The notes below the pieces were generated by a model. The model did no database searches. It had not been told where the DNA came from and was given only the letters and a program-made list of their open reading frames with translations. The position numbers and the translations under genes were made by a program. A stretch of DNA of 36,391 nt, taken from an uncultured Gemmatimonadota bacterium (GTDB taxonomy: Bacteria; GCA-2686955). The stretch lies in contig CAZBBK010000013.1 in NCBI GenBank assembly GCA_964490075.1, positions 62,001 to 98,391 on the forward strand, given 5' to 3'. This document shows positions 8,903 to 24,534 of the stretch, one piece after another (position 1 is the stretch's first letter; every line of letters begins with the position of its first letter).

Positions 8903-9140
8903 CGGAAGTTCCTCCGGGTGAGGGAGCGGGGATAGAGCCGCTCTCGATTCAGGGGGCAAGCGCGGCGGGCGCTTGGTGGCTCGAGCGACCATTCAGCGGT
9001 CGCGCCGATGAACCATCGCAATCGACGTGCCACCTCGGAGGAGGTTCGGAAGTTGCTGTCAGCCAGCCGTTTACGAGATCCATGGGGATCGCGGCACCGT
9101 GCTCGAATCGGCAGAGATCTGCCGCGACCGGCACGGACCC

Positions 9141-9390
9141 TCAGACGAAGCTCGTGTCTTTGAAGTAGTCGCTCAAGAACACGATCTTGCCGTCGCGCAG
9201 CCCGATCACCGTGACGCCCTCGTTCCGAAGCGCGCAGGCTCGAGCGCCGTCGATCGGCACTTCGTGGAGATGGAAGTCGAGGCGGCGGTACTTGCGGAAG
9301 AGCACACGCAGGAAGGCCAGCACGCGGCGCGACCCGACCAGCGGCGCCATTCCCGGAAAGCGCAGCTCGATCTCCTCGACGAGGGCGAAC
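9141..9390 (-). pseudogene. Remnant of a SnoaL/NTF2-like gene
   Basis: The C-terminal part reads like NTF2/SnoaL (IELRFPG..LVGSRRVLAFLRVLFRKY...GVTVIGLRDGKIVFLSDYFKDTSFV). There is no credible start or N-terminal helix, and an internal segment appears to be missing. Confidence 0.5.
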
Positions 9391-9574
9391 GCGCCGCCGC
9401 CCGGGATTTGAGCGCTAAAGGAATCTGTCCGGTGCTCCAGTCCTACCGCAGCCTCGGCCCCGCCGATCTCTCGAAGGTCCCTTATTGGCTCTGGAGCTCT
9501 GCTCGCGAGGCGGGGAAACGACGCCGTTTCGACGACGAGGGCTCGACATCGGCGGTCTGGAAGCTCCTCGCGCG

Positions 9575-10630
9575 CTAGAACCGCAAATCGAGCTGCACCA
9601 AAAGCTCGTTGTTGTCGACCTCGGTCCCCTCTTCGTCGTAGAGGTTGTAGTTGGCTCGGATCGCGACGTGGTCGTTCAGGTGACAATTTGCCCCGAGGCT
9701 AGTCAGCAGCTCCTGGTCATCGGCGATTTCGTCGTTCGGATCGTACTGCTCGTAGCGGGCCAGCGCGGTGATGTGGGGACTGATCTGGTAGGAGGCGAGC
9801 GCGTGCCAGCTCCAGGTCAGCAGGTCGGAACCGTCTCCTTCCCGAGACTGCGCGATGTACTCCGACTGCAGTGTGATTTTTTCGGCCGCGTAGGCGAGCA
9901 GCCCGGAGATACGCTCTCGCTTCTTGCCGAGGCCCTCCTCTTCGAGCTGGTCGCCGCCCCAATAGGCGCCGCCGAGACGGAGGGGACTCAGAGGCGATTC
10001 CATGCCCTTGAAGGGCTGCAAGACTGCGCGAGCCACCAGGTCCTTGGCATCGTTGACATCGTCTATGTTGACTCCCGATCCATTGAAGACACCGAGCGAG
10101 AGCCGACACTTGCCCTGAAGGAGCTCACTGCCGAGCACGAGGCCGATGTCTCGCGGAGAGATCCTCGGGTTGTCGGCGGAGCTGCCGGCATGGGTCTCGT
10201 AGATCCGCGGGCCGCGGATCAGCGGTTGCGACGGCGCCGGATTCGCGAATGACAGTCCCGCCTCCGAGAAGGGCACCTTGAACTGGCCGACGCGCACGCT
10301 GAAGCGCTCATCCGGAGCGTAGGTCAGAAAGGCATCCCAGAGCGTGTTCTTGCGAATGCTGTACAGGACTTTGTAGCTGGTATTGGAAGCCAAACGACCA
10401 GCGAAGTAGAGCTTCACTTCCGCCACATCGAAATCGTCGGGGCTGGTCGATTCCGGATCGTCGGCGTCCTCCGTGGCGTTGTAGCGAATAAACGCCACGC
10501 CCTTGATAGAAGCATCCAGACTTCCGCTGGCGATCTGAATCCCGGTGTCGCTCTCGGCCGCCGCGGTCGAGAGCGGAGCGCCGGCAAGGGCGCCCGCCAC
10601 CAAAGCTACCATCAGCTGTATCGATCTCAT
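9575..10630 (-). CDS. Outer-membrane porin (phosphate-selective porin O/P-like beta-barrel)
   Basis: Signal peptide, VRVGQFKVPFSE, RDIGLVL and GVFNGSG motifs, C-terminal Phe (QLDLRF). ATGA overlap with the upstream fusion gene. Confidence 0.85.
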   Translation of the reverse strand: MRSIQLMVALVAGALAGAPLSTAAAESDTGIQIASGSLDASIKGVAFIRYNATEDADDPESTSPDDFDVAEVKLYFAGRLASNTSYKVLYSIRKNTLWDAFLTYAPDERFSVRVGQFKVPFSEAGLSFANPAPSQPLIRGPRIYETHAGSSADNPRISPRDIGLVLGSELLQGKCRLSLGVFNGSGVNIDDVNDAKDLVARAVLQPFKGMESPLSPLRLGGAYWGGDQLEEEGLGKKRERISGLLAYAAEKITLQSEYIAQSREGDGSDLLTWSWHALASYQISPHITALARYEQYDPNDEIADDQELLTSLGANCHLNDHVAIRANYNLYDEEGTEVDNNELLVQLDLRF

Positions 10631-12372
10631 CGCGCATTTCCTTTCATCACTACCGACAGCTCCTCCATCAGACGCAACATCTCCTCGGCCGGCACGAAGT
10701 CGACCACGCGTAGCTCACGGTGCTCTCTGCCCTGATCGTCGAGCATGATCAGAGTCGGAACCCCTTTCACCTCGTAATGTCTCAGCAGACGATCGTGCAG
10801 CGGGTTGTCGCCGCCGGTCACGTCCACCTTGATCATCACCAGGTCCTTGGCGGCTTGCACCACCCGCGAATCGTGAAACGTCTCGGCTTCCAGCTTACGG
10901 CATGGCGTGCACCACCCGGCCGAAAAGTCGATGATGACCGCTTTGCCCTCTCGGCTCGCGTGAGCGAGGAGCTCATCGGAGTAGTGTTGCCAGCCGACCC
11001 CGGGCCCGAGCAACGCCCAGGCGGTGATCAGGTAGGTTCCGAGCACCACGCCCGACAATCCCATGGCGCGTTTGATCCAGGCGAAGCTGCGGAAGCTCGC
11101 GACGATCGGATCGAGCCAGCCTACCGCAACCCCCGCGACCAGAGCAACCGTCGCGATCGTCAGCAGGCCGAGGGGCTCGGGCAGAATCGGGCGCAGAAAA
11201 TAGGCCGCCATCCCGATCAGGATCCAACCCATCAGCCGGCGCACCCAGAGCATCCACTCGCCGGAGCGCGGCAGCCGATCGATGCGACCGGAGAAGACCG
11301 CCAGCGCGAAGAGGGGCAGCCCCAGTCCGAGGCTGAGGGTGAAGAAGATCAGGAATCCGTACCAGGCGCTGCCGCTCTCGGCCACCAGCGTGAGCAGGCC
11401 GAGCACGAAGGGCCCGATGCAGGGCGCGGCCACCACGCCCATCGCCAGTCCCATGAAGAGAGTGCCGAAGTAGCCGCCGTGGGAGCGCGCCGCCACCTGG
11501 GTCAGCCCGCTGGGCATGCGCATCTCCCACAATCCGAACATGCTGGTTGCCAGCAGCAGCAGAATTCCGGCCACCCCCACCAGCACCAACGGATTCTGCA
11601 GCAGCGCCCCCATCATGCCGCCGGTGAGTCCCGCCACCACGCCGAGCGCGGAGTTGGTGATCACCAGTCCGGCCAGGTAGCAGAGACCGTGGACCACCAC
11701 CGCACCCTGGGATCTGCCCGAGCGGCCACCGAAGTAGGTCACGGTGATCGGAATCAGAGGGTAGACGCAGGGGGTGAGGTTGAGGGCCAGTCCTCCCACG
11801 AACACTCCGGCGAGCATGAGCACCAGGGCCCAGCCGAACACCGGCACGGCCGGCACCTCGGTCTCCTCGATCGCCGGCGAATCGACGCTCGCCACCGGCA
11901 GACCGTGCTCCCGCCAGTCCGGGAACCCCTCCGGGTAGCGATAGACTTTCTCGTATCCCAGTGAGACGGCCACACGGGCCGCCGAGTCGCTGCGGACTCA
12001 GGTGAAGCCCGCTCAGTAGAATGCGATCAAGGCGTCCGAGTGCGGCTCCAGCAGCTTGTCGATTTTGCCGCGGGCGCGCCACCGGGCCCACCAGGTCGGC
12101 TCCATCGAGAAGTGCAGCGAGCCGGGGATGTGGCCGGTGCGATGCTCCCAGGCCTGGCGGGTGTCGACCAGCGCCACGCTCTTGGGATCGTTCTCGATCG
12201 CGCGCACCAGCTCGTCGGCCTCGATCAGCCCGTAGCCGCCTTTGCGTGCCTCTTTCTCCAGCTGCGCCTGTTGCTCGGGCGTGGCATCGGCGATCGCGAT
12301 CCCGGGCCACGCCAGCAGAGCTGCCAGGAGCACCAGACCAAGCGGTACGCGTCTATCGATGGAGTCCTTCAC
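10627..12372 (-). CDS. Predicted double-selenocysteine protein: signal peptide + rhodanese (UxxxxU) + DsbD/CcdA transmembrane domain + thioredoxin-like domain, 581 aa
   Basis: ORFs 12013..12372 and 10627..11973 share one frame and are separated only by TGA at 12013-12015 and TGA at 11998-12000. Read-through gives LVDTRQAWEHRTGHIPGS...IAFY-U-AGFT-U-VRSDSAARVAVSLGYEKVYRYPEGFPDW, a complete rhodanese domain. It continues into TPCVYP and APCIGP (DsbD beta) and WCTPC (Trx). GGAGG precedes the GTG start. Confidence 0.88.
11965..11999 (-). promoter_or_regulatory. Two tandem bacterial SECIS-like hairpins
   Basis: mRNA GAGUC-CGCAGC-GACUC has its loop starting 18 nt after UGA1. GGCGGCC-CGUGU-GGCCGUC has its loop starting 21 nt after UGA2. 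Both have G at loop position 2. Confidence 0.6.
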
Positions 12373-13394
12373 GATGATCCTCCGGCCGCCGAAGAAGCCG
12401 ACACTTGCGCGTCATCGGAGCGCAGGCGTTGAACCAGCGGTGTGACCCAACTGCCGGCCATCGCCGCCGGCACGAAGAGCAGCGCGCCCGGGGCCAGCAG
12501 GGGCGTGGCGCTCAGCCCCAGCCCGACCGTGCAGCCGGCCGCCAGGGCACCGCCGAGTCCCAGCCCGATGCCGCCGGCGAAGGCGGTCGCGAGCTTGCGC
12601 GGCGACGCCTTCGACCACTTGAAGCGGCCCTCGACCCGGGCGGCCGCGTGGGCCCCCAGGGTAATCGCCACCACCAGCACCGCGGCTGCGTCCAGGCGCC
12701 CGGGTCCGGCGCCCAGCAGCGCCTCGAACCAGCTGATGTTGCCGGGGATGATCGCCAGTCCATGGCCGCGTCCATCGACCGCCGCCAGCGCCCAGGCGCC
12801 GATGCCGACCGCTCCGATCACCACACCGGTGCGACGCCAGTCCCAGGCCCCGCGGGCCGCGGTCGATGGCTTCAGGCGACTCGCGACCACCAGCAGCAAT
12901 AAGGCCAGCGGCAGGGCAAGGGTCCACAGCGGTAGACCCGCCAGGCGCGGCGGATCGATCGGAGCCGGCACCGGCGCACCGCCGCCCCCGCCCGCCAGGT
13001 GGACGATCAGTCCGATCGACGCCGTGAAACCGGCGACCGCGGCCGTGCAGGCGACACTTCCTTCGCCGACATGTTGCCACACTCCCGCTCCGCAGCCACC
13101 GGCGGGCGCCATGGCGAAGCCGAAGATCAGGCCGCCCAGCAGCACCCTTCCGACATCGAATCCGATCTCGGGCAGCGCCAGCCATCCGGCCGCCGCCAGC
13201 AGCGGCAGCACCGCCATCTGCACCGCGACCGCCAGCCACAAGGTGTGGAACTTGCCGAAGCGCCTCCTGACCAGGAGGTCCCGAAAACCGGAGTTCAGTC
13301 AGAAGCGGCCGCGGCTCGCCGCGTAGCCGTAGGCGAAGCCGAGCGCCGCCCCTGAGAGCAGGGTGAGGCTGGTGTGGAGCATGGCTGGGTCCAT
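12369..13394 (-). CDS. YeeE/YedE-family thiosulfate/sulfur(selenium) transporter, predicted selenoprotein (U32), 341 aa
   Basis: ATG 13394, 3 nt after the ArsR stop, is in frame with ORF 12369..13241 through one TGA at 13299-13301. The translation is GAALGFAYGYAASRGRF-U-LNSGFRD, matching the family RxRFC motif. GGLIFGFAMAPAGGC and GLGGALAAGC follow. Confidence 0.88.
13263..13278 (-). promoter_or_regulatory. SECIS-like hairpin of the YeeE/YedE gene
   Basis: mRNA CCUCCU-GGUC-AGGAGG forms a perfect 6-bp stem with a G-initiated 4-nt loop starting 26 nt after the UGA. A lower stem GAACU/AGUUC is also possible. Confidence 0.7.
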
Positions 13395-13397
13395 CCG

Positions 13398-13715
13398 CTA
13401 CGGCTTCTTGGTGACGCAGCAGGTCGGGGCGGGCGGCTCGGCCGCCGCCTCGTCGTCGAGCAGGGCGACGAGTTGCGCGATGCGCGGGTCGCAGAGGTAG
13501 TAGCAGCGCAGCCGGCCGTGCACGTAGAAGTCCACGACCCCGCGCTTGCGCAGGACCGCAAGATGCTGCGAGACATTCGGTTGAGGAATCCCGAGGTTGG
13601 GCTCGAGGTCGGAGACGCAGAGCGGATCTCCCTCCTCCGCCAGGCGTTTGATGATCCGAATCCGCGTGGGGTGGGCGATCGTTCGCAGCAGCAGGGCCTT
13701 GGCTTCGACGTCCAT
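13398..13715 (-). CDS. ArsR/SmtB-family transcriptional repressor with five Cys
   Basis: IAHPTRIRII, LCVSDL and QPNVSQHLAVLRKRGVV motifs, plus RCYYLC and a C-terminal TCC. Confidence 0.93.
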   Translation of the reverse strand: MDVEAKALLLRTIAHPTRIRIIKRLAEEGDPLCVSDLEPNLGIPQPNVSQHLAVLRKRGVVDFYVHGRLRCYYLCDPRIAQLVALLDDEAAAEPPAPTCCVTKKP

Positions 13716-13721
13716 GCGGAT

Positions 13722-13750
13722 ACGATAGGGAAGCCATCATATGCCGTCAA
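13722..13750 (-). promoter_or_regulatory. Sigma70-type promoter of the arsR-yeeE-rhodanese/dsbD-porin operon (probably leaderless)
   Basis: Minus strand TTGACG (13750-13745), 17 nt, TATCGT (13727-13722), 6 nt, then ATG. No Shine-Dalgarno sequence. The region is an AT-rich island. Confidence 0.7.
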
Positions 13751-13797
13751 GGATATATATTAGATCGGCCAGGGTTTCTCTGGCGGCGCCCTTCTGG

Positions 13798-16700
13798 TCA
13801 GCTCGCGATCCGCCGCCGCACGCCGCGTCCGTGGAAACGGCCGACGTGCAGCACGCGCGCCACGTCGTCGACCAGGCTATAGAGCGAGGGGATGACCAGC
13901 AGGGTCAGGAAGGTGGCGACGGTCAGGCCCCAGACGATGGTGCTGGCCAGCGGACCCCAGACCGGGGAGTGGCCGCCGATGCCGAGCATCATCGGCAGCA
14001 GGCCGAAGACGGTGGTGAGGGTGGTCAGGCAGATCGGCCGCAGGCGGGTGCGGCCGGCATCGAGCACGGCGTCGCGCAGACTCAGGCCCCGCTCGCGCCC
14101 CATGTTGATGAACTCGATCAGGACCAGCGAGTCGTTGACGACCACCCCGGCCAGCGCCACGAAGCCGTAGAGAGTGGTGATGGTGAGAGTGTCGCCGCTC
14201 AAGGTGAGACTGATGGCGGCGCCGGCCAAACCGATCGGGATGGTGTAGAGGATGATCAGGGGCTGCACGAAGGAACGGAACTGCGCGCCGAGGATCATGT
14301 AGATCAGCAGCAGGCCGAGCAGGCCCAGGCGGCCGATGCCGCTCAGCGCCTTTTCGAACTCCTTCATCTCGCCGCCGAAGTCGAGACGGTATCCCGGGAA
14401 GCCGGGGGCGAGCTGCGCGAATCGTTGCTCCACCCAGCGTGCCACGTCGCCGCCCGACATGCCGCCTCCCTTCAGGTTGCCGCTGATGGTCACGGCGCGA
14501 TCACCGTCGAAGCGCGGGACCGCGCTCAGGCCTTCGGCGACTTGGACGGATGCGACCTCGCTGAGCGGCACGCTGCCGCCGCTTCGGGTGGGGACTCGCA
14601 GCGACAGAATATCGGCGATGTCGCGCCGGTAGCGCTCGTCGAGGCGCACCACGACGTCGATCTTTTCGTCGCCGTCCAGGTAGCTGGTGGCCACCTCGCC
14701 GTCGAGGGCGGTGCGCACGTGGGTCGCCAGGGCGGCGTTGTCGAGGGCCACCATGCCCGCCACATCGGGGCGCAGGCGCAGCTCGAGCACCTGCTTGCCG
14801 GGGCGCAGATTGTGGTCGACGTCGACCACTCCGGGCAGGGCGCCGAGCTCGTCGCGCAACAGGTTGCCGAGCAGCTCCAGATCGTCGAGGTAGGGACCCT
14901 TGATCTTGAACTCGATCGCCGCGCCGGCCGGCGGGCCGTCGGTCTTCTCCCAGATCTTGACCGTCTCGAGCCCGGTCAGCGAGGCGACGCGCGAGCGGAT
15001 CTGGTCGGTGATCTGGCGCATCGAGCGCGTCCGGTCGTCGTTCGGCACCAGGTCGACGTAGACCTCGCCCACCGCCGTGTTCCAGATCCAGTCGGTGTCG
15101 GTACGGAGCAATCCGGCGGTGGTGATCACCGATCCGCGCTCGGCGGGGTCGATGGTGTCGAGCACGATCTCCTCGAAGCGGTGCATCTGGGCGTCCATCG
15201 CCTCGAGGGTGGTCCCCTCGGGAGCCCACACCTGCACCCAGAACTGGCCCGATTCCTCGCCGGCGAAGAGGTCGGCGTCGGCCAGCTTCCAGGCGATCAC
15301 CCCCACCGAGAGGATCGGCAGCACGGTGGCCAGGGCACCGACCGCGTAGCGATGGTCGAAGCAGAGCGCCAGGAGGTGCGAGTAGCGGGGGCGGACGCGG
15401 TCCAGCAGCCGGCTGCCGAAAGGCGGGCGGTCGTCACCGGCGACGATGCGACCCCAGTCGGCGACGTGCGCCGGCAGCACGATGAGCGCCTCGAAGAGCG
15501 AGACCGCCAGGGCCACCGAGACGACGATCGGCACCACCTTCAGGAACTCGCCCATGATGCCGGGCAGCAGCATCAGGGGCAGGAAGCCGGCGATGGTGGT
15601 CAGGGAGGAGGTGAGCACCGGCAGCGCCACCTCCGACATGCCCCGGATCACCGCGCGATGCGGAGAGCTGCCCTGCTGGATGTGGCGGAAGACGTTCTCG
15701 ATGATGACGATGGCGTCGTCGACGATCATCCCCAACACCAGCACCAGGCCGAAGAGGGAGTTGCCGTTGAGGGTCTCGCCGATCAGGTCGAGGAAGAGGA
15801 AGGTGCCGGTGAAGCTGACGGCGATGCCGAGCGCGGCGAAGAGGGCGTTGCGCGCCTCCAGGAAGAGCAGCAGGGTGAGGATGACCAGGATCAGGCCGAA
15901 GCCGGCGTTGCGGTAGAGGGTGCGCAGGATGTCGCGGATTCCGACCGTCGAGTCGCCGCTCAGGCGGACTTCGACCCCGGTGGGCATGCGCTCTTCGAAA
16001 CCTTCGGCGGCCTCGCGCACGCGGTCCAGCACGTCGAGGGCGTTGGCGGCGGCGCGGCGGGTGACGAAGAGGGCGAAGGCGGGTTGCCCGTCGAGGCGCG
16101 AGTAGGTCAGGGCGTCCTCGAAGCCGTCGCGCACCGCGGCCACGTCGCGGATGCGCAGATGGCCGCCGCCAGGGGAGGGGCGCAGGATGACCGATTCCAG
16201 CTCGGCGGCGCTGTCGACCTCGCCCTTGGTCTTGACCATGAACTCGACCTCGCCGACCGGATAGTTGCCGGCCGGCAGGTCGAGGTTGTGGGCGCGCAGC
16301 GCATCGACCACGGCAGAGAGCGGGAGGCCGGTGGCGTCCAAGGCGGCGGCGTCTACCTCGACGAAGACCTGGCGATCGCGGGTGCCGATCAGCGAGGCGT
16401 CGGAGATGCCTTCGACATCGAGGATCTCCTCGCGCAGGTCGTCGACCCAGCGCTTGAGCTGGGCCTCGGGGTAGTCGCCCGAGAGGGTGAGGTGGACCAG
16501 GGGCTCGAAGGTGGAGGTATCGAGATCGAAGTAGTCGATCTCCTCGACCCCCTCCGGAAGCTGGTCGCGGATCGCGTCGATTTCGCGCTGCACGTCCTGG
16601 AAGCGGCGCCGGTACTCGTCGCGCGGCATGGTCTCGAAGCGCACCGAGATCTGGCCCGAATTCTCGGTCGCCAGCGAGGTGATGGTGCTGATCCCTTCGA

Positions 16701-16920
16701 TCCCCTCGATCGCCTCTTCGATCTCACGGATCACCTTGCGCTCGATCTCTTCGGGGGTGGCCCCCGGGTAGATCGCAAACACGTAGACCCAGTTGAAGGT
16801 GATGTTGGGATAGGCCTCGCGCGGCATGCGGGCGAAGGCCAACAGGCCCATGACCAGCACGATCAGCGCCAGCATGTTGGTGAGAACGGTGTTCTCGATG
16901 ATGCGCCGGAACAGGCCCAT
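13798..16920 (-). CDS. RND efflux permease (AcrB/AcrD/AcrF-like), 1040 aa
   Basis: MPREAYPNI, GMIVDDAIVIIEN, GVVVNDSLVL and RLRPICLTTLTT motifs. The start is ATG 16920 (MGLFRRIIE); the 18225 start is a frame extension. Confidence 0.95.
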   Translation of the reverse strand: MGLFRRIIENTVLTNMLALIVLVMGLLAFARMPREAYPNITFNWVYVFAIYPGATPEEIERKVIREIEEAIEGIEGISTITSLATENSGQISVRFETMPRDEYRRRFQDVQREIDAIRDQLPEGVEEIDYFDLDTSTFEPLVHLTLSGDYPEAQLKRWVDDLREEILDVEGISDASLIGTRDRQVFVEVDAAALDATGLPLSAVVDALRAHNLDLPAGNYPVGEVEFMVKTKGEVDSAAELESVILRPSPGGGHLRIRDVAAVRDGFEDALTYSRLDGQPAFALFVTRRAAANALDVLDRVREAAEGFEERMPTGVEVRLSGDSTVGIRDILRTLYRNAGFGLILVILTLLLFLEARNALFAALGIAVSFTGTFLFLDLIGETLNGNSLFGLVLVLGMIVDDAIVIIENVFRHIQQGSSPHRAVIRGMSEVALPVLTSSLTTIAGFLPLMLLPGIMGEFLKVVPIVVSVALAVSLFEALIVLPAHVADWGRIVAGDDRPPFGSRLLDRVRPRYSHLLALCFDHRYAVGALATVLPILSVGVIAWKLADADLFAGEESGQFWVQVWAPEGTTLEAMDAQMHRFEEIVLDTIDPAERGSVITTAGLLRTDTDWIWNTAVGEVYVDLVPNDDRTRSMRQITDQIRSRVASLTGLETVKIWEKTDGPPAGAAIEFKIKGPYLDDLELLGNLLRDELGALPGVVDVDHNLRPGKQVLELRLRPDVAGMVALDNAALATHVRTALDGEVATSYLDGDEKIDVVVRLDERYRRDIADILSLRVPTRSGGSVPLSEVASVQVAEGLSAVPRFDGDRAVTISGNLKGGGMSGGDVARWVEQRFAQLAPGFPGYRLDFGGEMKEFEKALSGIGRLGLLGLLLIYMILGAQFRSFVQPLIILYTIPIGLAGAAISLTLSGDTLTITTLYGFVALAGVVVNDSLVLIEFINMGRERGLSLRDAVLDAGRTRLRPICLTTLTTVFGLLPMMLGIGGHSPVWGPLASTIVWGLTVATFLTLLVIPSLYSLVDDVARVLHVGRFHGRGVRRRIAS

Positions 16921-16922
16921 GC

Positions 16923-18044
16923 TCAGCGCTCCGCCCGGATCTCGACCGCCTCGCCGTCGACCAGGCGCTGGTGGCCGACCACGATCAGACGATCGCCGGG
17001 GACCAGGCCCTCGACGATGCGCACCCGCTCGTCGACACGCTCGCCGACGCGCAGGGCGCGCTGCTGGGCCAGGCCGTTCTGCTCGACGAAGCCGAGCGCG
17101 GCGCCGCGCCGCACCACCACCGCCGACTGCGGGATCAGAATGGCGTCGGCGAGCTCTTCGCGCACCAGCTCGACGCGCACCGCGCTGCCGATCAGGGCTC
17201 CAGTCGCGGCGCTCAGCTCGACCTCGACCGGGTAGGTGCGGGTGCCGGGATCGGGAGCGACGGCGACCGAGCGCACCCGGGCGGGCCAGGCGCGGCTCGG
17301 ATCGTCGATCGGCTCGACGCGCGCGCTGTCGCCGGGCGCGACGGCGATCACCTCGCCGGCCGGCAGGCCGACGGTGATCCGCGGTGGGCCGCTGGAGACC
17401 AGCCGCGCCACCGGCTGTCCGGGGGCGATGGTGGCGCCGGGATCGGCGGCGAGGGCGGCGAGGACGCCCGGCCAGGGCGCCCGCACCACGGTCTCGCGAC
17501 GGGCGCGCAGCGCCGCGCGCAGGCTCGCCTCGGCATCGCGCCGGGAGGCGGCGGCGCTGCGCCTGGAGAGCTCGGCCTGGTCGCGCTGGGAGTCGGTCAG
17601 GTCGCCGGCGGCGTGCAGCTCGCGCACCCGCAGCCATTCGCGCTCGGCGTGCTCGGCGGCGGCCCGGGCGGCGTCGAGGCCGGCCTCGGCGCGCGTCACG
17701 CCGATCTCGGCCGGCTCGGGGTCGAAGCGCAGGATCGGATCCCCGGTCGCCAGGATGTCGCCGGTGTCGTGGAGCTGCTCGATCACCCGACCGCCGGTCT
17801 CCGAGGCGAGCCAGACGTCGTGCTCGGCGGCCAGAGCGCCGGTGGCGCGGATCAGCAGGGCGGCGGAGCCGGGTTGGACCCGCTCGACTTCGACGGCGCT
17901 GAGGGGGGTGGTCGTGGCGGCGGGCGGGTCGGCGTCGCCCTCGGCGCGGGTGTCGTGGGCGCAGCCGAGGAGCGAAAGGGCGGCGAGCAGGGCGACCGGA
18001 AGCAGAACGCGAGCGCCGGCGGTCGTCGTGGGATCGGGGATCAT
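16923..18044 (-). CDS. RND periplasmic adaptor (membrane fusion protein), lipoprotein
   Basis: Lipobox LLGC, alpha-hairpin, VRAPWPG, DPGTRTYPVEV and GLVPGDRLIVVG. Confidence 0.92.
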   Translation of the reverse strand: MIPDPTTTAGARVLLPVALLAALSLLGCAHDTRAEGDADPPAATTTPLSAVEVERVQPGSAALLIRATGALAAEHDVWLASETGGRVIEQLHDTGDILATGDPILRFDPEPAEIGVTRAEAGLDAARAAAEHAEREWLRVRELHAAGDLTDSQRDQAELSRRSAAASRRDAEASLRAALRARRETVVRAPWPGVLAALAADPGATIAPGQPVARLVSSGPPRITVGLPAGEVIAVAPGDSARVEPIDDPSRAWPARVRSVAVAPDPGTRTYPVEVELSAATGALIGSAVRVELVREELADAILIPQSAVVVRRGAALGFVEQNGLAQQRALRVGERVDERVRIVEGLVPGDRLIVVGHQRLVDGEAVEIRAER

Positions 18045-19507
18045 GGGTGGTCCTCTGCGGGTCCCGGCGGGACGCCGCTCGCCAGCTCCGAGAAACCGAG
18101 GAGGAAGCCGAGCGCGGCGGCCTCCAGGTAGTAGCCGGTGCGGTTCGAGATCGCTCCGAGCTCGGCCTCCAGGCAGGCCAGGCGGGCATCCTCCAGCTCC
18201 AGACGAGAGACGGCGCCCTGGACACGGCCGCGCTCGGCGGCGGCCAGCCCGCGGCGGGCGGCGGCGGCGGCCTTGGTGGCGTGCCCGCGGCGGCGGACGG
18301 CGGTGCGCAGTCGGGCGAGGTGCGTCACGAGCCGCTCGCGCTGGGCGCGACGCGCGTCATCGAGCCGGTGCCCTTCGGCGGCCTCACGGGCTCGGGCCTC
18401 GGCGCGGTCGAAGTAGCCGGTGGCGAAGGGAAGCAGCGGGAGCGAGACCACCAGCGACGCGCTCCATTCGGAGTAGTCGTCGAGGGCGATGGTCTCGTTG
18501 GCGCGCCAGCCGTAGCTGGCCCCGACAGCGACCGAGGGGAGCAGGGGGGCGCCGGCGGCGCGCGCCGCGGCGGCGGCGATGGCGCGCGCGGCCTCGGCGG
18601 CCCGCACCTCCGGGGCGGTGGCGCGTAGGCTCCGGGCCCAGGAGTCGACGACGCGCCCGGTGGTGTCGGCGAGGACGGTCTCGATGGGGCGCAGCTCGGG
18701 CAGGTCGCGTGCCTCGTCGAGGACCTCGATCGACTCACCGGGCGCCAGCGCCCTTCCCAGCAGACGCTCCAGTGCGGCGCGGGCCTCGACCTCGGCCGCC
18801 CGAGCCTCGGCCAGGTCGGCACGCGCGGCCGCGGCGGCGACCTCCCAGCGCAGCAGGTCGAGCTCGGTCCCGCTGCCCACCTCGAGACGGGTTGCCGCGC
18901 TGCGCCGGTAGTCGTCGACGCGGTCGACGTTGGCGCGCAGCACGGCGATCGTCTCGAGCGCCCGCCGCAGCGAGAGGAAGGCGCTTCGAGTCTCGAGCTC
19001 CGCGCGGCGGTCTTCGATCCGCTCCATCTGGTTCGCCAGGTCGCGCGCGCCCCGCGCCATCCCCAGCGCCCCCAGGCGGCTGCCGCCGGTGAAGAGCGCC
19101 CAGCTCAGCTCCAGCTCGCTGCGGTGGCTCTCGGCGAACACCCGCAGGTCGTCGAAGTCGCCGCCGGCCGACCGCGATTCGGGGGGCGGACCGAGCGAGT
19201 CGCCCGGCACCTGGGGCGCCGGGAAGAAGTCGATCCAGGAGTTGGCTCGCTCGACCGTCTCGGCGTCGAGGCGAGTGATCCGATGACGCGCGTCGAGCGA
19301 GGGCAGCCAGAGCGACCAGGCGCCCTGCTCGGCCGCGCGGGCGGCCTGCTCTTCGGCGCGGGCGGCGGCCAGCGCCGGATCGGAGCGTCGCGCTTCGGCG
19401 ATCGCGTCGGCGAGGGTCAACGCAAGCGCTTCCGGTGCCGCGCAGGTCGCCAGAACGAGGAGCGTCCGGGCGCTGCGTCCCATCCACCAGCCTCCCACGC
19501 CGATCAT
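18041..19507 (-). CDS. TolC-family outer membrane efflux protein
   Basis: LTLADAIAEA, LPSL, LFTGG and Ala/Arg-rich coiled coils. ATGA overlap with the MFP. Alternative start at 19483. Confidence 0.88.
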   Translation of the reverse strand: MIGVGGWWMGRSARTLLVLATCAAPEALALTLADAIAEARRSDPALAAARAEEQAARAAEQGAWSLWLPSLDARHRITRLDAETVERANSWIDFFPAPQVPGDSLGPPPESRSAGGDFDDLRVFAESHRSELELSWALFTGGSRLGALGMARGARDLANQMERIEDRRAELETRSAFLSLRRALETIAVLRANVDRVDDYRRSAATRLEVGSGTELDLLRWEVAAAAARADLAEARAAEVEARAALERLLGRALAPGESIEVLDEARDLPELRPIETVLADTTGRVVDSWARSLRATAPEVRAAEAARAIAAAAARAAGAPLLPSVAVGASYGWRANETIALDDYSEWSASLVVSLPLLPFATGYFDRAEARAREAAEGHRLDDARRAQRERLVTHLARLRTAVRRRGHATKAAAAARRGLAAAERGRVQGAVSRLELEDARLACLEAELGAISNRTGYYLEAAALGFLLGFSELASGVPPGPAEDHP

Positions 19508-19533: not shown

Positions 19534-20523
19534 TCAGACCGCCCTGGCTTCCTCGTCCAACTCCCCGAACTCCTTGGCGAAATAGGTCAGGATCAGGTCG
19601 GCCCCGGCCCGCTTGATCGCCGTCAGCGACTCCACCATCACCCGCGTTCCGTCGACCCAGCCGGCGCGCGCCGCCGCCTTCACCATGGCGTACTCCCCGC
19701 TCACCTGGTAGGCGGCGAGCGGCAGCTCTTCGTAGCGCATCCGGACCCGGTGCAGCACGTCGAGATAGGGCAGGGCCGGCTTCACCATGAGCATGTCGGC
19801 GCCTTCCTCCACGTCTAGGTCGACCTCGCGCAGCGCCTCGCGGGCGTTGGCCGGGTCGAGCTGATAGGCGCGCCGGTCGCCGAAGGCCGGGGCCGAATCG
19901 GCGGCGTCGCGGAAGGGGCCGTAGAAGGCCGACGCGAACTTGGCTGCATAGCTCAAGATCGCCACCTGGTCGAAGCCGGCCTCGTCGAGTGCCGCGCGGA
20001 TCCGCGCCACCCGGCCGTCCATCATGTCGGAGGGGGCGATGATGTCGGCGCCGGCCGCCGCCTGCGAGACGGCGGTGCGGGCCAGCAGCTCCAGGGTCGG
20101 ATCGTTGAGCACCGTCTCGCCTTCCACGACTCCGCAGTGGCCGTGGTCGGTGTACTCGCAGAGGCAGACGTCGGTGATCACCGTCAGATCCGGCGCCAGC
20201 TCCTTGACGCGCTTCACGGCCTGCTGCACCACGCCCTCGGCGGCGTAGGCGCCCGATCCGCGCGCGTCCTTGTGCGCCGGGATGCCGAACAGGATCACCG
20301 CGCCGATGCCGGCTTCGACCACCGCTTCGATTTCCTGCTCGAGGCGGTCGACCGAGGACCGGAACACTCCGGGCATCGACGCAACCTCCTCGCGCACCCC
20401 GGTCGCCTCCACGATGAAGAGCGGGTCGATCAGGTCGGCGGTGGTGACTCGGGTTTCGCGGACCAGGCGGCGCAGGCCGGCGCTGCGGCGCAGGCGGCGG
20501 GGACGGTCGATGGGGAAGGGCAT
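19534..20523 (-). CDS. hemB: Porphobilinogen synthase
   Basis: Zn site [35 protein letters not shown] and AYQVSGEY. Confidence 0.98.
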
Positions 20524-20556: not shown

Positions 20557-21315
20557 CTACTCGCCGCCCAAGCGTTCGGCCGCCGCCCGCAGCAGAGCAT
20601 CGAAGGTGCTGCGCGCCGCGACCACGCCGGCCGGCAGACCGCGGGATTGTAGCGCCTGCGCCGTGCTGGGACCGATCGCGGCGACCAGCGCTGCGCCGTA
20701 CAGCGCCCGGAAGCGCTCGGCTCCGACTGTGCCCAAGAGTCCCTCCGCGGCCGTGGGAGAGGCCACCAGGAAGGCGTCGACCATGCCCAGACGTTCCAGC
20801 TCGTGCCTTTCAATGCTGCGCGCACGCGATTGATAGGCAACGACTTCGCTGACCGGCACGGACGCTTCGGCGAGCAGCGCCGGCAGATCGGCCAGCGCTC
20901 GGTCGGAGCGCGGCAGCAGTACCCGCGTGTGCTCCGGCGTCGCGAGGGTGGCCAGGAGCGCCCGACCCAGCGCCGCGCCGCCGTGCCGCTCGGGCACCAG
21001 ATCGACCGCCCCGCCGGCCTTGGCCAGGCGCCGCGCCGTCGCGGGCCCCACCGCTCCCAGCCGAGGGCCCGTCGGCCCGCCCAGCTCGATCCCGGCGGCG
21101 ACCAGAGCGTCGACCGCGCGGGCGCTGGTGAAGAGCACCCAGTCGTAGCTCCGCCAGTCGGCCAACGCCCGCCGCAGCGGCCGCGGGTCATCCGGCGGCC
21201 CGATCTCGACCGCCGGCAGTGCCAGCGCCTCGCCCCCCAGGCGGGCGATGGCGCGTGCCGCCGCCGGCTGGCCGTCGGCCGGCCGGGTCACCACGATCCG
21301 GCGCCCGCTCAGCAT
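20557..21315 (-). CDS. hemD: Uroporphyrinogen-III synthase
   Basis: MLSGRRIVVTRP, YDWVLFTSARAV, AVGPATA and AIGPSTA. Lies between hemC and hemB. Confidence 0.92.
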   Translation of the reverse strand: MLSGRRIVVTRPADGQPAAARAIARLGGEALALPAVEIGPPDDPRPLRRALADWRSYDWVLFTSARAVDALVAAGIELGGPTGPRLGAVGPATARRLAKAGGAVDLVPERHGGAALGRALLATLATPEHTRVLLPRSDRALADLPALLAEASVPVSEVVAYQSRARSIERHELERLGMVDAFLVASPTAAEGLLGTVGAERFRALYGAALVAAIGPSTAQALQSRGLPAGVVAARSTFDALLRAAAERLGGE

Positions 21316-22247
21316 CGCGCCGCCTCGATCCACTCCCCGGCGCCGCGCTCCAGCAGCACGCCCGCCAGCTGCCGCCCCAACTCCTCGGCCGCCGCCGCCC
21401 GGCCCTCGATGCCGTCGCGCGCCACGCCGCGCCCCTCCAGCTCCGCCACGCAGCCCTCGAGCCGCAGCCGCCCCCCCTCGACGCGGGCCAGGGCCCCCAC
21501 CGGGGCGTGACAGCCGCCGCGCAGCTCCTGGAGGAAGGCGCGCTCCGCGGCCACCGCCGCCGCCGTGGGCACGTCGTGCAACGCCGCCAGCTCCGCCGCC
21601 ACCGCTCGGTCTCCGGCCCGGCACTCGATCGCCAGCGCCCCCTGGCCCGGCGCCGGCAGCATGCGCCGCAGGTCGAGCGCGCAGGCGATCCGCGCGCCGA
21701 GACCCAGGCGCAGCAACCCCGCCTCGGCCAGCACCACGCCGTCGAGCACCACGCCGTCCGGGCCGGGTTGCTCCACCCTGCGCAGGCGGGTCGGCACGTT
21801 GCCGCGGATCGGCACCATGCGCAGATCGCCGCGCCAGGCCAGGAGCTGCGCGCGTCGCCGCGGCGATCCGGTCCCCAGCGCCGCCCCCCGCGGCAGATCC
21901 TCGAGCGCCCGCGCCCCCGGCGCGACGAGCACGTCGCGCACCGGCCCGCGCGGCGGCACCGCGGCCAGCGCGATCCCTTCGGCGCGCACCGTCTCCAGGT
22001 CCTTCATGCTGTGCACCACCAGGTCGACCTCGCCGGCCAGCAGCCGTTCCTGCACCTCGCGCACGAACACGCCCTGGGTGCCGACCGCGGCGATCGGACG
22101 ATCGGTGACGCGGTCGCCGCGGGTGCGGATGGTCACCAGCTCCACCTCACGCCCGCCGAGGCGCGTCAATTCCCCCGCTACCCAGCGCGCCTGCCAGAGT
22201 GCCAGGTCCGATCCGCGGGTGCCGACGCGCAGTGCCTTTCGATCCAT
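21309..22247 (-). CDS. hemC: Hydroxymethylbilane synthase
   Basis: VGTRGSDLALWQA, VHSMKD, GTGSPRR, RGNVPTRL, PAPGQGAL and GGCHAP. Start at ATG 22247 (MDRKALRV). Confidence 0.97.
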   Translation of the reverse strand: MDRKALRVGTRGSDLALWQARWVAGELTRLGGREVELVTIRTRGDRVTDRPIAAVGTQGVFVREVQERLLAGEVDLVVHSMKDLETVRAEGIALAAVPPRGPVRDVLVAPGARALEDLPRGAALGTGSPRRRAQLLAWRGDLRMVPIRGNVPTRLRRVEQPGPDGVVLDGVVLAEAGLLRLGLGARIACALDLRRMLPAPGQGALAIECRAGDRAVAAELAALHDVPTAAAVAAERAFLQELRGGCHAPVGALARVEGGRLRLEGCVAELEGRGVARDGIEGRAAAAEELGRQLAGVLLERGAGEWIEAARC

Positions 22248-22324
22248 CTCGGTTCCATTCGCGCCACGTCGAGCGCGTCGTCTGACGCATCGTTTGACGC
22301 GCGTTTCAGTGCTCCGCGGGTGCG

Positions 22325-23683
22325 TCAAACGCGGTCTATGCCGCTCCTGGTCCGCTCGCCGGCGCCGTCGGAAAGGCCGCTGCGGCCGTTGGCGCCGCCC
22401 GGGCCGCTCTCGCCGAGCGCGAAGAGATAACGCAGCGCCTCGACGAAGCGTCGTGCCCCGCGCTCGCCGGCCGCCGCTTCTTTGAGTCGCACGGTGGGGT
22501 CGTGCAGCAGCTTGGTGACGATCGAGTGGCCCAGATGACGCACCGCCTTCTGGTCGGCCGCCGACAGGCCCTCGATGCGCCGCAGCACTTTCTCGACCTC
22601 GGTCTCGGCGACGTCGTGGCCGTGCTGGCGCAGCATGGCGATGGCCGGAACGACGCGGCGCTCGTCGAGCCAGCGGTGGAAGAGCCCCGCCTCGTCCTCC
22701 ACGATCCGCTCCGCCTGGGCCGCTTCGGCCTGGCGCGAGGCCTCGCCGTCGCGCACCACGTTGCGCAGATGGTCGATGTGATAGAGGAAGACGTTGTAGA
22801 GGCCGCCCACCGCGGGATCGACGTCGCGCGGCACGGCGATGTCGACGATGAAGAGCGGCCGATTGCGGCGCTGCTTCATCGCGCTGCGTACCATGGCGAC
22901 GTCGAGGATCGCCTTGCTGGCGGCGGTCGACGTGGTCACCAGGTCGGCCCGCGTCAGGGCTCCGGCCACGCCCTCGAGATCGATGATCTCGCCGAGGGCG
23001 CGCGGCATCGCAGCGAGCAAGCGCTCTGCCCGCTCGCGGCTGCGGTTGGCGACGATCACCCCTCCTACCTCGGCGTCGACCAGGTAGCGGGCGATCTGCT
23101 TGGCCATCTCGCCGGCCCCGATCACCAGTGCCCGGCGGCGCTCCAGCGAGCCGAAGAGCTTGCGCGCCAGGTCGACCGCCGCCGACGCCACCGAAGTGGT
23201 CGACTGGCCGATGGCGGTCTCGGTGCGCACCCTCTTGCCGGTCTCGACCGCGACCGCGAAGAGGCGGTTGAAGCTGGGGCCGGTCCAGCCGCGGTCGCGC
23301 GCGAACTCGTGCGCCTCGCGCACCTGGCGCAGGATCTCCGACTCGCCCAGGACCATCGAGTCGAGGCTGGCCGCCACGCGCAGCAGATGACGCGTCGTCG
23401 CCGGACCGGTGGCGTGGTAGGAGTGGGCGCGCACGGTCTCGATCGCGACCCCGTGGAAGTCGGCGAAGAAGCGCTCCAGAACCTGCCGACCTTCGTCGTC
23501 CTCCCCCGGCAGCATGGCGTAGAGCTCGGCACGGTTGCAGGTCGACAGGATCACCCGCTCGTCGGCGCCGCGCCCGGCGAGCTCCTCGCCGGCACGCCGC
23601 AGGGCGTCGCCGTCGAAGCTGAAGCGTTCGCGCAGGTCGACCGGCGTGGTGCGGTGGTTCAGGCCGAAGAGGTGCAGGCGCAT
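22325..23683 (-). CDS. hemA: Glutamyl-tRNA reductase
   Basis: GLNHRTTPVDLRE, STCNRAE, SLDSMVLGE, IGAGEM and DIAVPRD. Start at ATG 23683. Confidence 0.97.
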   Translation of the reverse strand: MRLHLFGLNHRTTPVDLRERFSFDGDALRRAGEELAGRGADERVILSTCNRAELYAMLPGEDDEGRQVLERFFADFHGVAIETVRAHSYHATGPATTRHLLRVAASLDSMVLGESEILRQVREAHEFARDRGWTGPSFNRLFAVAVETGKRVRTETAIGQSTTSVASAAVDLARKLFGSLERRRALVIGAGEMAKQIARYLVDAEVGGVIVANRSRERAERLLAAMPRALGEIIDLEGVAGALTRADLVTTSTAASKAILDVAMVRSAMKQRRNRPLFIVDIAVPRDVDPAVGGLYNVFLYHIDHLRNVVRDGEASRQAEAAQAERIVEDEAGLFHRWLDERRVVPAIAMLRQHGHDVAETEVEKVLRRIEGLSAADQKAVRHLGHSIVTKLLHDPTVRLKEAAAGERGARRFVEALRYLFALGESGPGGANGRSGLSDGAGERTRSGIDRV

Positions 23684-23688
23684 CGGCG

Positions 23689-24534
23689 TCACCGGAAGCT
23701 GTGGAAGCCGGATGCGAGCGGCCCCGCGCCGATATGGGTCGCCAGCACCACCGCGAAGCCGACCAGCGAAGTCCACGCCGAGCGCGGGCCCTGCCAGCCC
23801 AGCAGCGGGCGGCTCAGGAGGTATGCGGCATAGGTCACCCATGCACAGGCAGCGACGATCGTCTTCGGGTCGGTCAGCCAGACGCCGCGCGCCTCACCCG
23901 CCGCCCACAGCGCCCCGGAGAGCAGACCGATGCTGAGGGCCGGCCAGCCGATCTGCACGCCGCGATGGGTCATGCGGTCGAGCGTGCCGAGATCGGGAAA
24001 GCGCTGGAATACCAGGCCCATGTCGGCCCGGGCCAGGGTCCGCTGCAGCAGCACCAGCATCAGCGCCGTGGTGGCGCTGAAGGTGAACGCGGCGTAGGCC
24101 ACCAGCGTCGACAAGACGTGGGCGCTGAACCAGGCGCTGGCGAAGAGCTCCAGCGGCGGCTCCGCGGCGGCGCCGGCGCGGGTATCGAGCAGCACCGCCG
24201 TCGCGTAGAAGGCCGCCGCCAGCGGCGCCATGAAGAGGCCGAAAGCGCGGTTGCGGAACAGGCCTTCGAGCGGCACGTAGACCAGCACCACCGAGAGCGC
24301 GAAGAGCGACAGGAACCCGGCTTCGGTGGTGACCGGACAGCGCAGCACTCCTTGCCCGCCGCCGAGCAGCGCCACCAGGTGCAGCCCCGCCCCGCTCGCC
24401 AGGGCGGCGGTCGCCAGCCAGCCCGTGGCGCGGGCGCCGCGGGCGAAATGCGCGGCGTAGGCAGCCGTGCCCGCGAGGTACAGGAGCGGTGGAGCGAACA
24501 GAGTCAACAGGGAGTCTCTCCGGTGGGCCGACAA
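23689..24534 (-). CDS. CcsA/HemX-like cytochrome c assembly family membrane protein
   Basis: About 8 TM helices, with HV, GALWA and W.TDPK motifs. Located immediately upstream of hemA. The start could instead be TTG 24507. Confidence 0.88.
   Translation of the reverse strand: MSAHRRDSLLTLFAPPLLYLAGTAAYAAHFARGARATGWLATAALASGAGLHLVALLGGGQGVLRCPVTTEAGFLSLFALSVVLVYVPLEGLFRNRAFGLFMAPLAAAFYATAVLLDTRAGAAAEPPLELFASAWFSAHVLSTLVAYAAFTFSATTALMLVLLQRTLARADMGLVFQRFPDLGTLDRMTHRGVQIGWPALSIGLLSGALWAAGEARGVWLTDPKTIVAACAWVTYAAYLLSRPLLGWQGPRSAWTSLVGFAVVLATHIGAGPLASGFHSFR

Follow-up and report, generated by a model that had tools for sequence, protein, structure and literature searches.

We identify a gene for a probable two-selenocysteine (Sec) rhodanese in the window, by which we mean the whole 36,391-nucleotide (nt) stretch analyzed here from an uncultured Gemmatimonadota bacterium (GenBank assembly GCA_964490075.1, contig CAZBBK010000013.1, positions 62,001 to 98,391). 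The gene, tsoB, lies on the minus strand at 10627..12372, and we put at roughly 0.9 the probability that it encodes a full-length selenoprotein of the TsoB family. Such a protein would join a rhodanese domain with the loop Sec120-A-G-F-T-Sec125 to a DsbD-type membrane domain and a C-terminal thioredoxin-like domain with a CxxC motif. Its two UGA codons would be decoded through a selenocysteine insertion sequence (SECIS), and it would work as a DsbD-like electron relay. The curated model for the family, NCBIfam NF045694 (seleno_TsoB), matches the protein with 860.7 bits against a cut-off of 805, and when run against the genome DNA it scores 848.5 bits, with "2 TGA" inside the match. Excerpts of Zhang et al. 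(2026; PMC13188914) tabulate TsoB as a rhodanese/DsbD fusion-like selenoprotein with the motif UxxxxU and two Sec residues, credit it to Haft & Tolstoy (2025; mSystems 10:e0141724), and expand Tso as "three selenoprotein operon." The BSepDB paper (PMC13326102) contains no passage on rhodaneses, on two Sec residues, or on Gemmatimonadota. A first-pass annotation of this DNA, made from the sequence alone, had implied that a di-Sec rhodanese was a novelty; because the TsoB family was named, modeled, and published in 2025, the novelty is low, and the window gene is a new member of a family already catalogued.

Translated with TGA as U, tsoB forms a single frame of 581 codons followed by a TGA stop, with a GTG start and in-frame TGA at codons 120 and 125. 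Codons 118-128 read F-Y-UGA-A-G-F-T-UGA-V-R-S, and the loop with its surroundings reads LIAFY-U-AGFT-U-VRSDSAARVAVSLGYEKVYRYPEGFPDW, which confirms that the two TGA codons quoted in the first-pass annotation stand in one frame. The coordinates given there were also right, with the correction that the gene is on the minus strand. The first codon, UGA-1 (Sec120; 12013..12015, minus), occupies the catalytic-Cys position of rhodaneses, and the second, UGA-2 (Sec125; 11998..12000, minus), falls within a two-residue insertion relative to solved rhodaneses. For the Tyr codon preceding UGA-1 (12016-12018, minus), 86 of 90 distinct sequences use TAC (entropy 0.26 bits), which possibly reflects an upstream context effect on Sec decoding.

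A gene that is split or dead at codon 120 would leave a rhodanese fragment and an independent DsbD-like protein starting from GTG 11973. Translation table 11 yields exactly such a pair of open reading frames (ORFs), one of 119 aa (12013-12372) and one of 448 aa from GTG 11973; these are the two products that the first-pass annotation had foreseen for a truncated gene, and they are how gene callers treat tsoB. In the public protein collection, the window's gene is accordingly represented by the 448-aa P0005 alone, and 116 of its best 120 database relatives are similarly short calls of 406-483 aa that start past the second UGA and lack the rhodanese domain. Because gene callers are blind to Sec, truncated calls of this kind are also the expected outcome for an intact selenoprotein gene.

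The conservation of the TGA pair argues against a dead gene. We examined 104 related loci, including the window's own, drawn from a scan of genome contigs (22 loci) and a scan of metagenomes (80 loci). The loop is covered in 97 of the 104, and the two codons are TGA/TGA in 96 of these and TCA/TCA in one (L081); the remaining seven either lack the rhodanese part or start beyond it. Twenty of the 22 genome-contig loci cover the loop, all 20 with TGA/TGA, and the other two have no rhodanese part. Among 91 distinct 270-nt sequences, TGA stands at UGA-1 in 90 and likewise at UGA-2 in 90. Both TGAs are retained between phyla at 47-60% protein identity, and the most divergent group, at 47-49% identity, reads FYUDGLTUVRSHGAAS. 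In a second phylum (that of L035, with records labeled Desulfobacterales and similar), 26 of 401 genomes sampled carry TsoB over the cut-off, and all 30 over-cut-off matches in this sample hold exactly two TGA. A TGA pair in 96 of 97 loop-covering loci is more than chance would give. Four genomes of the second phylum (G094, G164, G191, and G212) each carry two over-cut-off copies with two TGA per copy, and a fifth (G387) has two matches, only one of them over the cut-off.

The codons that lie between the two TGAs keep their residues (A in 82, G in 91, L in 86, and T in 54 of the 91 distinct sequences), while their codon entropy, 1.47-2.0 bits, is near that of codons outside the constrained stretch described below. 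Residues that are kept while codons vary suggest that translation continues past UGA-1. Homologs with cysteine at both Sec positions, whose existence the first-pass annotation had treated as decisive, were found as well. Only four of the best 120 database relatives are full-length proteins bearing a rhodanese domain (P0006, P0008, P0009, and P0023), and two of these have Cys at both positions: P0006 reads FYCTGQTCVRS and P0008 reads FYCAGPDCVRS. Together with the 96 TGA/TGA loci, they supply the UxxxxU and CxxxxC homologs that the earlier annotation had proposed to collect. No DNA of a Cys-form homolog was present among the 102 loci of the two collection scans or the 30 loci of the 401 genomes.

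The genome of the window, 95.31% complete, also encodes the machinery needed for Sec. SelB (345.6 bits, or 378.4 including neighboring pieces), SelA (505.9 bits), and SelD (317.9 bits) are all over their cut-offs, and tRNA-Sec scores 75.2 bits against a gathering score of 47. The selD gene has one in-frame TGA of its own (G000:C65:32509-33429, L018), suggesting that the selenophosphate synthetase is itself a selenoprotein. With the TGA pair kept across phyla, selection at the protein level on the codons between and after the TGAs, full-length Cys forms, the Sec machinery, and a covarying SECIS-type hairpin (see below) all present, we consider a split or dead gene extremely improbable. Almost as improbable is a reading in which the UGAs are read through as something other than Sec, either as near-cognate Cys or Trp or because UGA has been reassigned in this lineage. 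Against reassignment, TGA is the terminal stop in nine of 11 window genes checked, tsoB included, and occurs in frame in only two of the 11, namely tsoB (two) and its upstream yeeE-like neighbor (one). Against non-Sec read-through stand the complete Sec system in the genome, local RNA that matches SECIS rules, and the alignment of both positions to Cys in homologs, which is the classic Cys/Sec signature. The earlier proposal that both TGAs specify Sec is thus supported by the machinery, the 96/97 conservation, the CxxxxC homologs, the covarying hairpin, and the curated two-Sec family.

The predicted protein is built from three domains behind a signal peptide. The signal peptide, predicted at residues 1-29 (12286..12372, minus), has a hydrophobic core at 9-27, an AIA/DA site, and a hydropathy peak of 2.24; we take it to be cleaved there and to place the rhodanese domain in the periplasm. 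The rhodanese domain (Pfam PF00581, residues 52-155; 11908..12219, minus) matches with 50.0 bits against a gathering score of 22.2 (E 4.2e-13), and the match spans both TGAs, so the two halves of the fold flank the TGAs in one frame, as had been claimed. The identification as a rhodanese stands, although not as a rhodanese alone, since the protein is a rhodanese/DsbD/thioredoxin fusion. A DsbD-type transmembrane domain (Pfam PF02683 DsbD_TM, 142.8 bits) covers residues 184-397 (11182..11823, minus) and contains Cys202 (11767-11769, minus) and Cys318 (11419-11421, minus). The C-terminal thioredoxin-like domain, residues 461-568 (10669..10992, minus), carries C488-T-P-C491 and is matched by Pfam Thioredoxin_7 (residues 461-545), Thioredoxin_2, and Thioredoxin. 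Each of the 12 aligned sequences keeps C202, C318, C488, and C491. Judged by eye, the membrane part has seven segments above the hydropathy threshold and an eighth slightly below it; if the spans are even in number, as they are in DsbD, the rhodanese and thioredoxin-like domains would both lie in the periplasm.

Within the rhodanese domain, U120 aligns to the cysteine of the FYC motif in the rhodaneses of PDB entries 6mxv, 3d1p, and 2hhg, which we take to be their catalytic residue. The first-pass annotation had stated that many rhodaneses read FYCxxxxCxRS at this point. This is not borne out among solved rhodaneses, the nearest of which read FYCxx(x)RS with no second Cys, because U125 sits in a two-residue insertion specific to the TsoB family. 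An AlphaFold2 model places a strand at residues 115-119, then the loop, and then a helix at 127-137, with predicted local distance difference test (pLDDT) values of 57-90 in blocks over residues 31-160.

The RNA that follows the two UGAs carries a second layer of conservation. Synonymous sites are frozen directly after the second UGA: eight of the ten codons +6 to +15 have codon entropies of 0.37-1.26 bits (+7, 1.46; +8, 0.78), compared with about 1.5-2.3 bits for four- and six-fold codons elsewhere. Val+6 is GTC in 78 of 87 sequences (0.64 bits), Asp+9 is GAC in 78 of 84 (0.37 bits), Ala+12 is GCC in 80 of 91 (0.53 bits), and Val+14 is GTG in 72 of 82 (0.53 bits); Arg+13 is freer, with CGG in 49, CGT in 31, and AGG in six of 86 (1.26 bits). 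The bacterial SECIS (bSECIS) model given in excerpts of PMC13188914 calls for a 4-16 bp stem, a 3-9 nt loop with G in its first two positions, a distance of 16-37 nt between the UGA and the loop, and a minimum free energy of -7.5 kcal/mol or lower.

A SECIS candidate, hairpin B, spans 11965..11983 (minus) with the stem GGCGGCC/GGCCGUC around the loop CGUGU, which begins 21 nt past UGA-2 and 36 nt past UGA-1. With a stem of 6-7 bp, it falls within the bSECIS limits for UGA-2, and for UGA-1 at the edge of the range. Structure tests were run on 92 sequences in an ungapped alignment of 81 columns with 500 shuffles. In hairpin B, 46 cells are changed on both sides of a pair, compared with 11.3 ± 2.5 in shuffles, and none of the 500 shuffles reaches its covariation score; slid registers are only 24.6-61.0% paired. 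Pair 42-54 is GC in 67 sequences, AU in 13, CG in six, GU in five, and other in one, and pair 45-51 is CG in 81, UA in 10, and UG in one. The covarying columns are all third codon positions. In the window, hairpin B has a free energy of -11.5 kcal/mol, and hairpins A and B together have -18.3 kcal/mol.

Hairpin A lies at 11984..11999 (minus), with the stem GAGUC/GACUC around the loop CGCAGC, and takes in the G and A of UGA-2; its loop begins 18 nt past UGA-1. Pair 27-34 is CG in 83 sequences, GC in four, UG in three, and other in two, and pair 25-36 is GC in 86, GU in five, and AU in one. Support for hairpin A as a conserved element is modest.

How the two hairpins share the work is less clear. 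In one arrangement, a single SECIS suffices: hairpin B serves both UGAs, with no separate function for hairpin A, as opposed to a tandem arrangement in which A serves UGA-1 and B serves UGA-2. The spacings of 21 and 36 nt are both within the 16-37 nt of the model, and hairpin B is the stable element with the stronger covariation, whereas hairpin A alone falls short of the -7.5 kcal/mol limit. Pulling the other way, a spacing of 36 nt is almost the longest that the model permits; the two hairpins stand in nearly equal register to the UGAs, with A starting 13 nt past UGA-1 and B 14-15 nt past UGA-2; and 95.2% of the cells of hairpin A are paired over the 92 sequences. The third position of Val+6 points in the same direction, being C in 78 of 87 and G exactly where its partner G34 becomes C (four sequences). 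On balance, we hold the chances of a single SECIS to be about even. Under tandem decoding, the ribosome would melt hairpin A on reaching the second UGA, and hairpin B would then serve UGA-2. We raise only tentatively, and think rather unlikely, the proposal that tandem in-register stem-loops decode UGAs 15 nt apart, and/or that TsoB without TsoA and TsoC acts as the periplasmic redox head of a porin/channel route. The literature listed for two UGAs together with the bacterial SECIS held no description of a bacterial tandem relay, judging by the listing and leaving Haft & Tolstoy 2025 aside.

A further candidate, a hairpin running from UGA-1 to just beyond UGA-2 (columns 10-17 with 23-30; -10.8 kcal/mol), was rejected as a conserved element. 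It has no pair that changes on both sides, 77.0% of its cells are paired compared with 77.1% in shuffles, and the third position of Ala+1 varies freely. An Rfam scan of 9000-14500 (E up to 10) returned no SECIS family and three chance-level microRNA or long non-coding RNA matches. Single-sequence fold z-scores around the UGAs are unremarkable (-0.4 to -1.4), so the evidence for structure comes from covariation and not from folding energy.

The genes on either side of tsoB form a compact unit with it on the minus strand. Immediately upstream is a gene of 341 codons for a YeeE/TsuA-like sulfur-transport channel (12369..13394, minus; Pfam Sulf_transp, 165.8 bits), whose TGA stop overlaps the GTG of tsoB (GTGA); downstream, the TGA of tsoB overlaps the ATG (ATGA) of a gene for a 351-aa porin of the phosphate-selective O/P type (9575..10630, minus; Pfam Porin_O_P, 43.2 bits). 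In translation, tsoB is coupled to both of these neighbors. The yeeE-like gene is itself a candidate selenoprotein gene. It has an in-frame TGA at codon 32 (13299-13301) in the context RF-U-LNSGF; U32 aligns to Cys22 of 6leo_A from Spirochaeta thermophila, and C101 and C287 align to two further Cys of that protein. A SECIS-like hairpin at 13263..13278 (minus; CCUCCU/AGGAGG around the loop GGUC, -9.1 kcal/mol) has its loop beginning 26 nt after the codon-32 UGA, as judged from folding only, with two relatives available. Three nucleotides upstream of the yeeE-like gene is a 105-aa regulator of the ArsR/SmtB family (13398..13715, minus), which scores 75.6 bits with NF033788 (cut-off 55) and 36.9 bits with the TsoR model NF045707 (cut-off 115). 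A sigma-70-like promoter-like site lies upstream of arsR at 13722..13750 (minus); it is the one such match in 9000-14000, where 0.4 are expected, and is weak as evidence.

The order ArsR, yeeE(U), tsoB, porin recurs in the two nearest records, which are Gemmatimonadetes and Gemmatimonadota metagenome-assembled genomes with TsoB 75-79% identical. L034 and L050 share the synteny: a yeeE-like gene stands upstream of tsoB in L034/L029 and L050, and in L034/L029 a porin with 61.5% identity follows tsoB. This coupling of yeeE to tsoB was seen only in the window's lineage, with two of 123 loci found by Sec motif, both the same record, and L029, L034, L031, and L050 found by tblastn. ArsR homologs with 48-52% identity stand upstream of tsoB in L123, L125, L129, and L131. 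At L125:1438-6075, which belongs to the most divergent TsoB group, the ArsR protein is 52% identical to the window's and is accompanied by a 135-aa protein of no family and a DedA-like membrane protein; upstream is a weak TsoC-like small selenoprotein (27.7 bits against 45), and a Sec-type selD (372 bits) is convergent. The 2.6-kb contig of L050, which is the same as L031 (G003:C626), carries the TsoB match in three pieces in different frames, with 5 TGA counted in the genome search, which points to frameshifts or assembly errors.

To place the window locus among its relatives, the 123 related loci were sorted by the Sec motif beside tsoB. Both the LULAxC motif upstream and the NEPxGxxU motif downstream are found in 51 of the 123, the TsoC motif only in 28, and the TsoA motif only in nine, so that 88 have one or both; neither is present in 33, many with short flanks. 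Five loci (L036, L037, L060, L077, and L140) have two NEPxGxxU (TsoC-type) ORFs downstream of tsoB. In the window genome, neither TsoA (the LULAxC selenoprotein, NF045695) nor TsoC (the NEPxGxxU selenoprotein, NF045708) was matched, and motif scans of the window for both found nothing; the control genomes gave no match to either model, so these model searches are weak by themselves. The phylum of the window genome has only five genomes in the GTDB-based collection, two with TsoB over the cut-off and a third with a partial match, and the small number suggests a small lineage that is not the main Gemmatimonadota.

Beyond arsR, the same strand carries genes for an outer-membrane factor (18041-19507), a membrane-fusion protein (16923-18044), and an AcrB-type pump (about 13798-16920); these pump genes (13798-19507) adjoin the arsR-yeeE-tsoB-porin unit upstream, 82 nt from arsR. 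Haem genes follow at 22325-23842, 21309-22328, and 19534-20523 (minus). ARAGORN reports a tRNA-Ala(GGC) at 21237-21328 (plus) that, at 92 nt, has an unusual length for tRNA-Ala and may be a false call; it shares 20 nt with the end of the porphobilinogen deaminase ORF on the minus strand (21309-22328).

These features suggest a possible scheme for TsoB. Hairpin B, possibly helped by hairpin A, would direct Sec decoding of both UGAs through SelA, SelB, SelD, and tRNA-Sec. The alignment of the DsbD model over residues 186-572 and the invariance of C202, C318, C488, and C491 point to a DsbD-like electron path, in which cytoplasmic thioredoxin would hand electrons to the two membrane Cys residues, from where they would reach first the C-terminal CxxC and finally the Sec pair. 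By analogy, we infer that this relay feeds the loop. Sec120 would attack a chalcogen substrate, taking a sulfane or selenium atom or being oxidized, and Sec125 would resolve the Sec120 adduct to form a diselenide, which the DsbD path would reduce back to the diselenol; such cycling of Sec120 and Sec125 is plausible. The porin and the YeeE-like channel next to tsoB suggest a sulfur or selenium anion, for example thiosulfate, as substrate, and the placement of tsoB in L125 beside a Sec-type selD and a weak TsoC-like selenoprotein hints at selenium handling. The ArsR-regulated set of porin, di-Sec rhodanese-DsbD, and YeeE-like channel may therefore reduce a sulfur or selenium oxyanion or a sulfane species in the periplasm and pass the product inward.

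Several observations weigh against this overall interpretation. Sec at positions 120 and 125 is inferred from sequence. Natural variants exist with neither Sec nor Cys at both sites: L081 has Ser/Ser, P0009 has Gly/Arg, and in P0023 the loop is deleted. The metagenomic L081 (L081:2762-2842) is otherwise close to L069, with hairpins A and B intact, and may be either a true Ser/Ser variant or an artifact of assembly; the Gly and Arg codons of P0009 are each one base change from TGA. The score of the window protein is only about 55 bits above the NF045694 cut-off, compared with scores of 847-1012 bits for the over-cut-off matches in the second phylum, and the partner selenoproteins after which the Tso system is named did not turn up in this genome. 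Over the whole protein, the AlphaFold2 model is mediocre (mean pLDDT 66.2, predicted template modeling score 0.40), serving for domain boundaries only and giving no Sec-Sec distance. As for the decoding signals, 53 of 92 sequences cannot form the outermost pair of hairpin B (39-57), and hairpin A alone is weak at -4.8 kcal/mol. Compensatory changes in hairpin A are few, with four GC cells and one AU cell; the GC cells come from four loci, all in the most divergent group (47-49% identity), and perhaps represent a single event. Because the sequences are related, the shuffle control overstates the significance of the covariation. Finally, the identity of the substrate is drawn from the neighboring genes alone and is held with low confidence.

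The rhodanese loop with its two Sec residues is real and of an unusual chemistry, and a Sec pair fed by a DsbD-type conduit would, if true, make a very low-potential, fast periplasmic site for redox chemistry or chalcogen transfer. The instance in the window extends TsoB to a barely sampled lineage and indicates that TsoB is able to exist apart from TsoA and TsoC, a point that bears on the role of TsoB itself. Its link to a Sec-bearing YeeE/TsuA-like channel and an anion porin is a concrete hint at the substrate and, if TsoB acts as the redox head between porin and channel, would outline a three-compartment route for reductive sulfur or selenium uptake. The alignment also adds comparative evidence on the decoding of a pair of UGAs separated by five codons. 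For annotation, the locus is a warning: public gene calls cut the gene down to a 448-aa "DsbD," and 116 of its best 120 relatives are truncated calls as well, so that most annotations do not show the selenoprotein.

Comparison with known systems places the window locus close to several of them. The YeeE-like neighbor shares with the YeeE/TsuA thiosulfate channel (PDB 6leo) the Sulf_transp fold, with U32, C101, and C287 at Cys positions, yet it is below the cut-offs of the TsuA and YedE NCBIfam models (110.9 against 400 and 56.4 against 350, respectively). A YeeE/YedE selenoprotein is already tabulated in the excerpts of PMC13188914, where its motif is GUxSG; that of the window protein is F-U-L-N-S-G. 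The same excerpts list single-Sec rhodanese selenoproteins (forms 1-4), which share the rhodanese fold and a Sec in the active-site loop but differ in having one Sec, the motifs UxxS, UxxG, or CxU, and no DsbD part; with NF041203 (rhodanese_LYCAU), the window protein scores 22.8 bits against a cut-off of 115. TsoB as curated in NF045694 has the same union of rhodanese, DsbD membrane domain, and thioredoxin, and the same UxxxxU motif with two Sec, and the window protein is over its cut-off. It differs in the loop sequence, AGFT where AGLT or AGLA is commoner, and in its Gemmatimonadetes-labeled lineage, a phylum of only five genomes in the collection, with a score near the cut-off. The locus as a whole holds TsoB but is not the Tso three-selenoprotein operon. 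DsbD of the E. coli type (PRK00293) shares one Cys per membrane half (C202 and C318) and a C-terminal thioredoxin-like CxxC, and its model aligns to TsoB residues 186-572 with 238.7 bits, below the cut-off of 330. Whereas the N-terminal domain of E. coli DsbD is immunoglobulin-like and carries a Cys pair, the N-terminal periplasmic domain of TsoB is a rhodanese fold with two Sec. Overall, the window protein appears to be DsbD-like in its working, by analogy with that enzyme, but is not filed as DsbD.

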